From Escherichia coli (GTDB lineage Bacteria > Pseudomonadota > Gammaproteobacteria > Enterobacterales > Enterobacteriaceae), in NCBI RefSeq assembly GCF_044647545.1, contig NZ_CP172818.1: 64,000 nucleotides of DNA. One strand, written 5' to 3'. Position numbers and translations under genes: made by a program. Under the pieces are notes generated by a model that saw nothing but the letters and a program-made list of their open reading frames with translations, was not told the origin of the DNA and did not search any database. Positions 54,370 through 54,396 of the stretch are shown here, in pieces (position 1 is the first letter of the stretch; each line of letters begins with the position of its first letter).

Positions 54370-54396
54370 AGATGGGGGGGATTTTGAGGGTTTCAA
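54370..54396 (-). promoter_or_regulatory. sigma32 heat-shock promoter of hslVU (TTGAAA-N13-CCCCATCT)
   Basis: Minus-strand reading gives TTGAAA (54396-54391), 13-nt spacer, CCCCATCT (54377-54370); the -35 hexamer overlaps the ftsN stop codon. Confidence 0.6.

Follow-up and report, generated by a model that had tools for sequence, protein, structure and literature searches.

The window (the whole stretch of 64,000 nucleotides of Escherichia coli DNA that was analysed) carries on its minus strand, at the junction of ftsN and hslV, what is very probably hslVp, the RpoH (sigma-32) heat-shock promoter of hslVU (clpQY), accompanied by a stabilising leader hairpin. We assign to this overall explanation of the locus a probability of about 0.93. 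That the sigma-32 motif is the working promoter of hslVU is supported by mapped transcription starts, by published genetics and by conservation among relatives. The promoter and the leader hairpin are both already described and curated. Two points are mildly new and neither was found stated in the literature examined: the order-wide overlap of the ftsN stop codon with the -35 hexamer, and the probable sharing of the hairpin between ftsN and hslVU. The locus represents a clean dual-coding case, in which a stop codon is included in a promoter hexamer and is retained across most of a bacterial order, as well as a case of one RNA hairpin that probably serves two neighbouring genes.

The first-pass annotation had considered the region as ordinary E. 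coli, fit for use as a positive control, and this description holds: of 5426 complete E. coli genomes, 5425 contain the 321-bp region, and RefSeq names the flanking genes ftsN and hslV. The main use of the locus is indeed that of a positive control: it confirms the ordinary, well-annotated E. coli character of this part of the window, and the ability of a first-stage reader to recognise a sigma-32 promoter by its sequence alone. The positions of the features are given in Table 1; window positions are converted to MG1655 coordinates by adding 4067987.

Table 1. Features of the ftsN-hslV junction (window coordinates; nt, nucleotides).
Feature	Position	Strand	Basis or remark
ftsN CDS	54393..55352	-	ORF list; RefSeq annotation, identical DNA
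Sigma-32 -35 hexamer TTGAAA	54391..54396	-	6/6 consensus match
Spacer CCCTCAAAATCCC, 13 nt	54378..54390	-	sequence reading
Sigma-32 -10 octamer CCCCATCT	54370..54377	-	match to consensus CCCCATNT
TATAAT hexamer overlapping the end of the -10 octamer	54365..54370	-	20 nt from TTGAAA
Main transcription start (A), MG1655 4122348	54361	-	SMRT-Cappable-seq; dRNA-seq
hslV 5' UTR, 61 nt	54301..54361	-	mapped start and GTG at 54300
GC-rich hairpin, 8 perfect pairs and one G-U, loop UUUU	54335..54356	-	fold, Rfam RF02401, covariation, published mutants
Rfam RF02401 'ClpQY_promoter' (cis-regulatory) match	54298..54355	-	model positions 1-57 of 57
T-rich tail TTTGTTCTCTG and mapped RNA 3' end	54320..54334	-	terminator-like scan; TRS 3' terminus
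Shine-Dalgarno AAGGGG, 7 nt ahead of GTG	54308..54313	-	sequence reading
hslV ORF	53770..54300	-	GTG start 54300-54298; ORF list

The sigma-32 promoter and its transcription start

Across the promoter, the minus strand (examined over 54200-54520) reads ...GCC GCC GGG GGT TGA AAC CCT CAA AAT CCC CCC CAT CTA TAA TTG CA.... The last sense codons of ftsN are GGG GGT (Gly-Gly) and are followed by the TGA stop; the hexamer TTGAAA is composed of the wobble T of the last codon, the stop codon and AA. The proposal that the ftsN TGA lies inside the -35 element is borne out by the ORF 54393..55352, which puts this codon at 54395-54393. The 13-nt spacer is within the 13-14 nt required by sigma-32, and a run of seven C's (54380-54374) is formed by the last three C's of the spacer and the four C's of the -10 octamer. 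When the -35 is scored on the alternative wording CTTGAA (-35 to -30), the site GTTGAA matches at 5/6 positions. The first-pass annotation had read TTGAAA-N13-octamer at 54370-54396 on the minus strand as the heat-shock consensus. Our scan recovered exactly this span: it is the single match to TTGAAA-N13/14-CCCCATNT in the 64 kb of the window, and 100 shuffles that preserved the dinucleotide composition yielded no match.

The transcription start was obtained from published maps of MG1655. SMRT-Cappable-seq defines an hslV-hslU operon at 4120362..4122348 on the reverse strand, and the dRNA-seq starts of Thomason 2015, as given in the 'Nearby TSS' column of the TRS Supplementary Data 4, are 4122348 and 4122353. 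With the offset of +4067987 these positions correspond to 54361 and 54366 in the window. The start at 54361 is located 9 nt past T54370, the end of the -10 (about 8 nt being expected), and the numbering of dnaK P1 (CCCCATTT at -15 to -8 and CTTGAA at -35 to -30) predicts +1 at 54362, one base away from the mapped start. An hslV start mapped elsewhere was the outcome that the first-pass annotation had named as contrary to the promoter; the SMRT-Cappable-seq start (54361) and the dRNA-seq starts (54361 and 54366) both fit the promoter. The second dRNA-seq 5' end, at 54366, counts against a simple picture with a single start. The Cappable-seq supplement contains no entry for the hslVU locus. On this evidence, the sigma-32 RNA polymerase would read TTGAAA (-34 to -29) and CCCCATCT (-16 to -9) and would initiate at A54361.

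A different position was given by Lien et al. 2009 (PMC2681174), for whom the 'first' start of hslVU lies 71 bp ahead of the GTG, the point from which their 'full leader' constructs begin. This position corresponds to 54371 in the window, 10 nt upstream of 54361 and inside CCCCATCT. A start inside the -10 octamer is unable to be the start of this promoter and conflicts with two maps of single-base resolution; it was rejected, and the published figure is regarded as imprecise.

The genetics of hslVU induction has been published. The expression of clpQ::lacZ fusions and the native mRNA are induced by heat in an rpoH-dependent and rpoS-independent manner (Lien et al. 2009, PMC2681174), the dependence on rpoH being documented with rpoH mutants, with a shift from 30 to 42 degrees and with a C-to-T mutant of the -10. 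In this mutant (CCTCATCT) expression is lower and heat induction is abolished (Lien et al. 2009, PMC2681174).

A promoter used mainly by sigma-70 (or sigma-38), with TTGAAA as -35 and TATAAT as -10 and with only a secondary likeness to sigma-32, appears very unlikely. A perfect TATAAT does overlap the -10 octamer, but the two hexamers are separated by 20 nt, outside the 16-18 nt of the sigma-70 spacing and too far for sigma-70 use, and a sigma-70 scan of 53700-55500 with a spacing of 16-18 nt detected no site. The mapped start 54361 is merely 4 nt past TATAAT. The conservation points in the same direction, as CCCCAT is retained throughout the order, in contrast to TATAAT, in place of which Erwinia and Pantoea carry CCCCATATCTG. 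Concerning sigma-38, rpoS mutants are like the wild type, and mutation of a putative RpoS -10 overlapping the octamer was without effect (Lien et al. 2009, PMC2681174). What speaks for the other sigma factors is that rpoH mutants keep a basal expression of hslVU, which indicates that another holoenzyme contributes a little; use of the sequence by sigma-70 or sigma-38 may account for this residual expression beside the sigma-32 promoter.

The other point in favour of sigma-70 comes from laboratory evolution. In the heat-evolved strain BM28, two C's of the seven-C run are lost, which leaves an 18-nt spacer between TTGAAA and TATAAT. A stronger use of sigma-70 is predicted from this 2-bp deletion, which is seen in heat-evolved strains, and the authors who described BM28 suggested that the deletion moves control from sigma-32 to sigma-70. 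A sigma-70 use is plausible once the deletion has occurred, as in BM28. The same deletion is also visible in the E. coli genome comparison, as a 78-nt match (H33). In laboratory strains adapted to heat, the seven-C run is already known as an evolutionary switch point.

Conservation of the promoter and of its overlap with ftsN

Within E. coli, the K-12 allele of the 81 nt covering promoter and hairpin is exact in 5079 of 5425 complete genomes (94%). The window allele has a T instead of the A at 54330, in the tail that follows the hairpin (GGGGTTTGTTCTCTG in the window, GGGGTTTGTACTCTG in K-12), which makes this tail richer in U; it is exact in 82 of about 5425 genomes. These exact counts cover the two commonest alleles only.

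The comparison was extended to 80 hslV loci from as many species (81 loci with the window). The sigma-32 motif is exact in 66 of the 80 relatives, that is 67/81 with the window included, and of these 67 loci, 59 have a 13-nt spacer and 8 a 14-nt one. Outside Vibrionaceae and Alteromonadales, 68 of 75 loci (window included) have the ftsN TGA at offset +1 of TTGAAA. In the same 68 loci FtsN ends in Gly-Gly, occasionally in Arg-Gly. Moreover GGGGGTTGA is present in 66/78 loci, which indicates that conservation extends to the third, synonymous base of the penultimate Gly codon. In most of the sampled Enterobacterales, the layout of stop codon and -35 seems to be frozen, which fixes the C-terminal Gly-Gly of FtsN together with synonymous bases ahead of the hexamer.

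Several loci display other arrangements. Two sequences from insect symbionts or endosymbionts, Candidatus Hartigia pinicola (L079) and Pantoea sp. Nvir (L082), lack one of the G's that precede TTGAAA, immediately upstream of position 1501; with the loss of this G, the ftsN frame continues across the -35 hexamer (...SSGVEK...) and ends 11-35 nt later. In Photobacterium, Grimontia and Aestuariibacter the ftsN stop is located 21-87 nt upstream of the -35, and in Photobacterium a canonical terminator is present between the two. In Grimontia hollisae (L081) and Aestuariibacter salexigens (L076) the 3' arm of the ftsN terminator overlaps the hslV -35 (GCCCTTGAATTT and GTGGCTTGAAATTT, respectively), about 80-120 nt upstream of position 1501, which is a different packing of the same two signals. 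All Photorhabdus (L043, L047, L051, L053, L064) and Xenorhabdus (L068, L069) loci noted here keep the exact motif and the stop-codon overlap; their leaders are of 99-115 nt, without a strong hairpin at the usual offset. Finally, in Pectobacterium zantedeschiae (L049) the motif is located 181 nt from the hslV start, compared with 59 nt in P. betavasculorum (L044), which suggests that the leader of the former carries an insertion.

The leader hairpin

The stem of the hairpin begins at +6 of the 61-nt leader, counted from the start at 54361. Its arms are CCCCGTAC (54355-54348) and GTACGGGG (54343-54336), separated by the loop TTTT (54347-54344), and an additional G-U pair is formed by 54356 and 54335. 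The hairpin that had been proposed at 54333-54358 is real and is included in the hslV 5' UTR; these limits are a loose envelope, the perfect stem being narrower (54355-54336). The Rfam family RF02401 was recovered with a score of 62.8 bits (gathering score 42, E = 6e-13). A match to the Rfam family anti-hemB, at 17.7 bits for a gathering score of 49.5, is sub-threshold and was dismissed as chance.

The effect of the hairpin on hslVU has been established in the literature (Lien et al. 2009, PMC2681174). Removal of 40 bp of the leader, or of the inverted repeat, reduces mRNA, protein and mRNA half-life; a change of one stem arm to T's causes the same reduction, and a stem of different sequence and equal stability rescues expression. 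According to these experiments, the GC-rich hairpin of 8-9 bp forms five nt into the leader and shields the hslVU message from decay.

The hairpin is also detected in the relatives. A perfect stem of at least 8 bp, starting 12-18 nt after the -10, was found by per-sequence stem search in 51 of 78 loci, compared with 2.8% of shuffled leaders. The loci contain 40 distinct stem sequences, so the hairpin covaries, and RNAalifold reports compensatory double changes at 7/8 pairs. As the MAFFT alignment of the leaders misplaces the 3' arm in the Erwinia and Pantoea group, the RNAalifold counts are backed by the per-sequence stem search and its shuffle control. Vibrionaceae leaders have 5-bp hairpins or none, and Aestuariibacter has an 8-bp stem further along the leader. 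Downstream of the stem, the AGGGG of the Shine-Dalgarno sequence is nearly invariant in an alignment of 46 loci.

A perfect 8-bp inverted repeat just downstream of a transcription start could also be expected of a DNA operator bound by a dimeric regulator. This interpretation of the palindrome is extremely improbable here, since the 40 different stems retain pairing and not sequence, which is the signature of an RNA stem, and a stem of unrelated sequence is functional. Furthermore, no regulator has been reported and Hfq is without effect (Lien et al. 2009, PMC2681174). It is also unlikely, though less so, that the hairpin acts as a transcriptional attenuator which ends most hslVp transcripts after about 36 nt, with a negative or regulatory net effect on hslVU. 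Its shape is terminator-like, a 3' end is mapped at 54326, 36 nt from the start, and strong T-runs are present past the stem in Tatumella, Rosenbergiella and some Pantoea. However, loss or disruption of the hairpin decreases hslV mRNA and protein instead of raising them, and a compensatory stem rescues expression. Reads are only about 1.3x as dense in the ftsN 3' UTR as in the coding region of the gene, which is not among the flagged outliers; this argues against an abundant short RNA.

As ftsN ends inside the -35, transcripts coming from upstream have to cross the promoter, and from the ftsN stop to the start of hslV our scan detected no terminator-like site other than the hairpin. In the TRS analysis, an RNA 3' end on the minus strand is listed at 4122307-4122321, dominant at 4122313 and labelled 'Primary ftsN'; the dominant position corresponds to 54326 in the window, 10 nt past the stem. 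According to Yan et al., cytR-ftsN transcripts and read-through ftsN-hslV-hslU transcripts both exist at the locus. In the 51 loci with the stem, T makes up a fraction of 0.53 of the 8 nt that follow it and of 0.23 of the remaining UTR. In Vibrionaceae and Alteromonadales, an ftsN terminator is kept before the -35 or overlapping it. These published 3'-end maps and the comparative anatomy indicate that the hairpin probably ends ftsN transcripts, and the odds slightly favour a single hairpin with two functions, the termination of ftsN transcripts and the stabilisation of hslVU mRNA. The cytR/ftsN transcripts would meet the hairpin and its T-rich tail, where many would end about 10 nt past the stem and others would read through into hslVU; the second role of the hairpin would be that of a leaky ftsN terminator or of a 3'-end stabiliser.

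Other data speak against a termination of ftsN transcripts at the hairpin. The curated Term-seq list of Adams et al. 2021, which covers three conditions, contains no minus-strand 3' end at this place, so that termination may be weak or the expression of ftsN too low. The U-tract is weak (5/8 T's in the window and 4/8 in the K-12 allele); the stem is strong and the consensus scan flags the site. The RNAs with a 3' end at 54326 could also be short transcripts of hslVp itself, or products that an exonuclease has shortened as far as the hairpin.

On the opposite strand, a curated Term-seq 3' end is located at window position 54360 (+ strand, MG1655 4122347), 4-5 nt past the same palindrome, and is annotated as antisense to ftsN. 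No sigma-70-like promoter that could be the source of an antisense RNA ending at 54360 was detected in 53700-55500.

Comparison with known systems

The window locus is the same as the hslVp/clpQY promoter of E. coli K-12 (Chuang et al. 1993, as cited in Lien et al. 2009, PMC2681174). The -35, the -10, the C-run, the hairpin, the Shine-Dalgarno sequence and the GTG start are all alike, and position 54330 is the single difference in the 81 nt over promoter and hairpin (T in the window, A in K-12).

Among other sigma-32 promoters, dnaK P1 is the reference for the cryo-EM structure of the sigma-32 open complex (PMC10216364). It reads TTGAAG-N13-CCCCATTT, compared with TTGAAA-N13-CCCCATCT in hslVp, with an identical spacer. 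The distance from the octamer to the start of transcription is 8 nt in dnaK P1 and 9 nt in hslVp. The base that precedes TTGAA is a C in dnaK P1, whereas in hslVp it is a G belonging to the final Gly codon of ftsN.

Concerning the leader, the RF02401 model contains, like the window, an 8-bp stem followed by an unstructured remainder up to the GTG; the loop in the window is one base longer than in the model consensus. The stem-loops at the 5' termini of the ompA and papA mRNAs, as cited in Lien et al. 2009 (PMC2681174), are likewise stable hairpins placed a few nucleotides at most from the 5' end, and prolong the life of the mRNA by structure rather than by sequence. The hslVU hairpin differs from them in that it probably also stands at the end of the transcript of the upstream gene, where it is followed by a T-rich tail.
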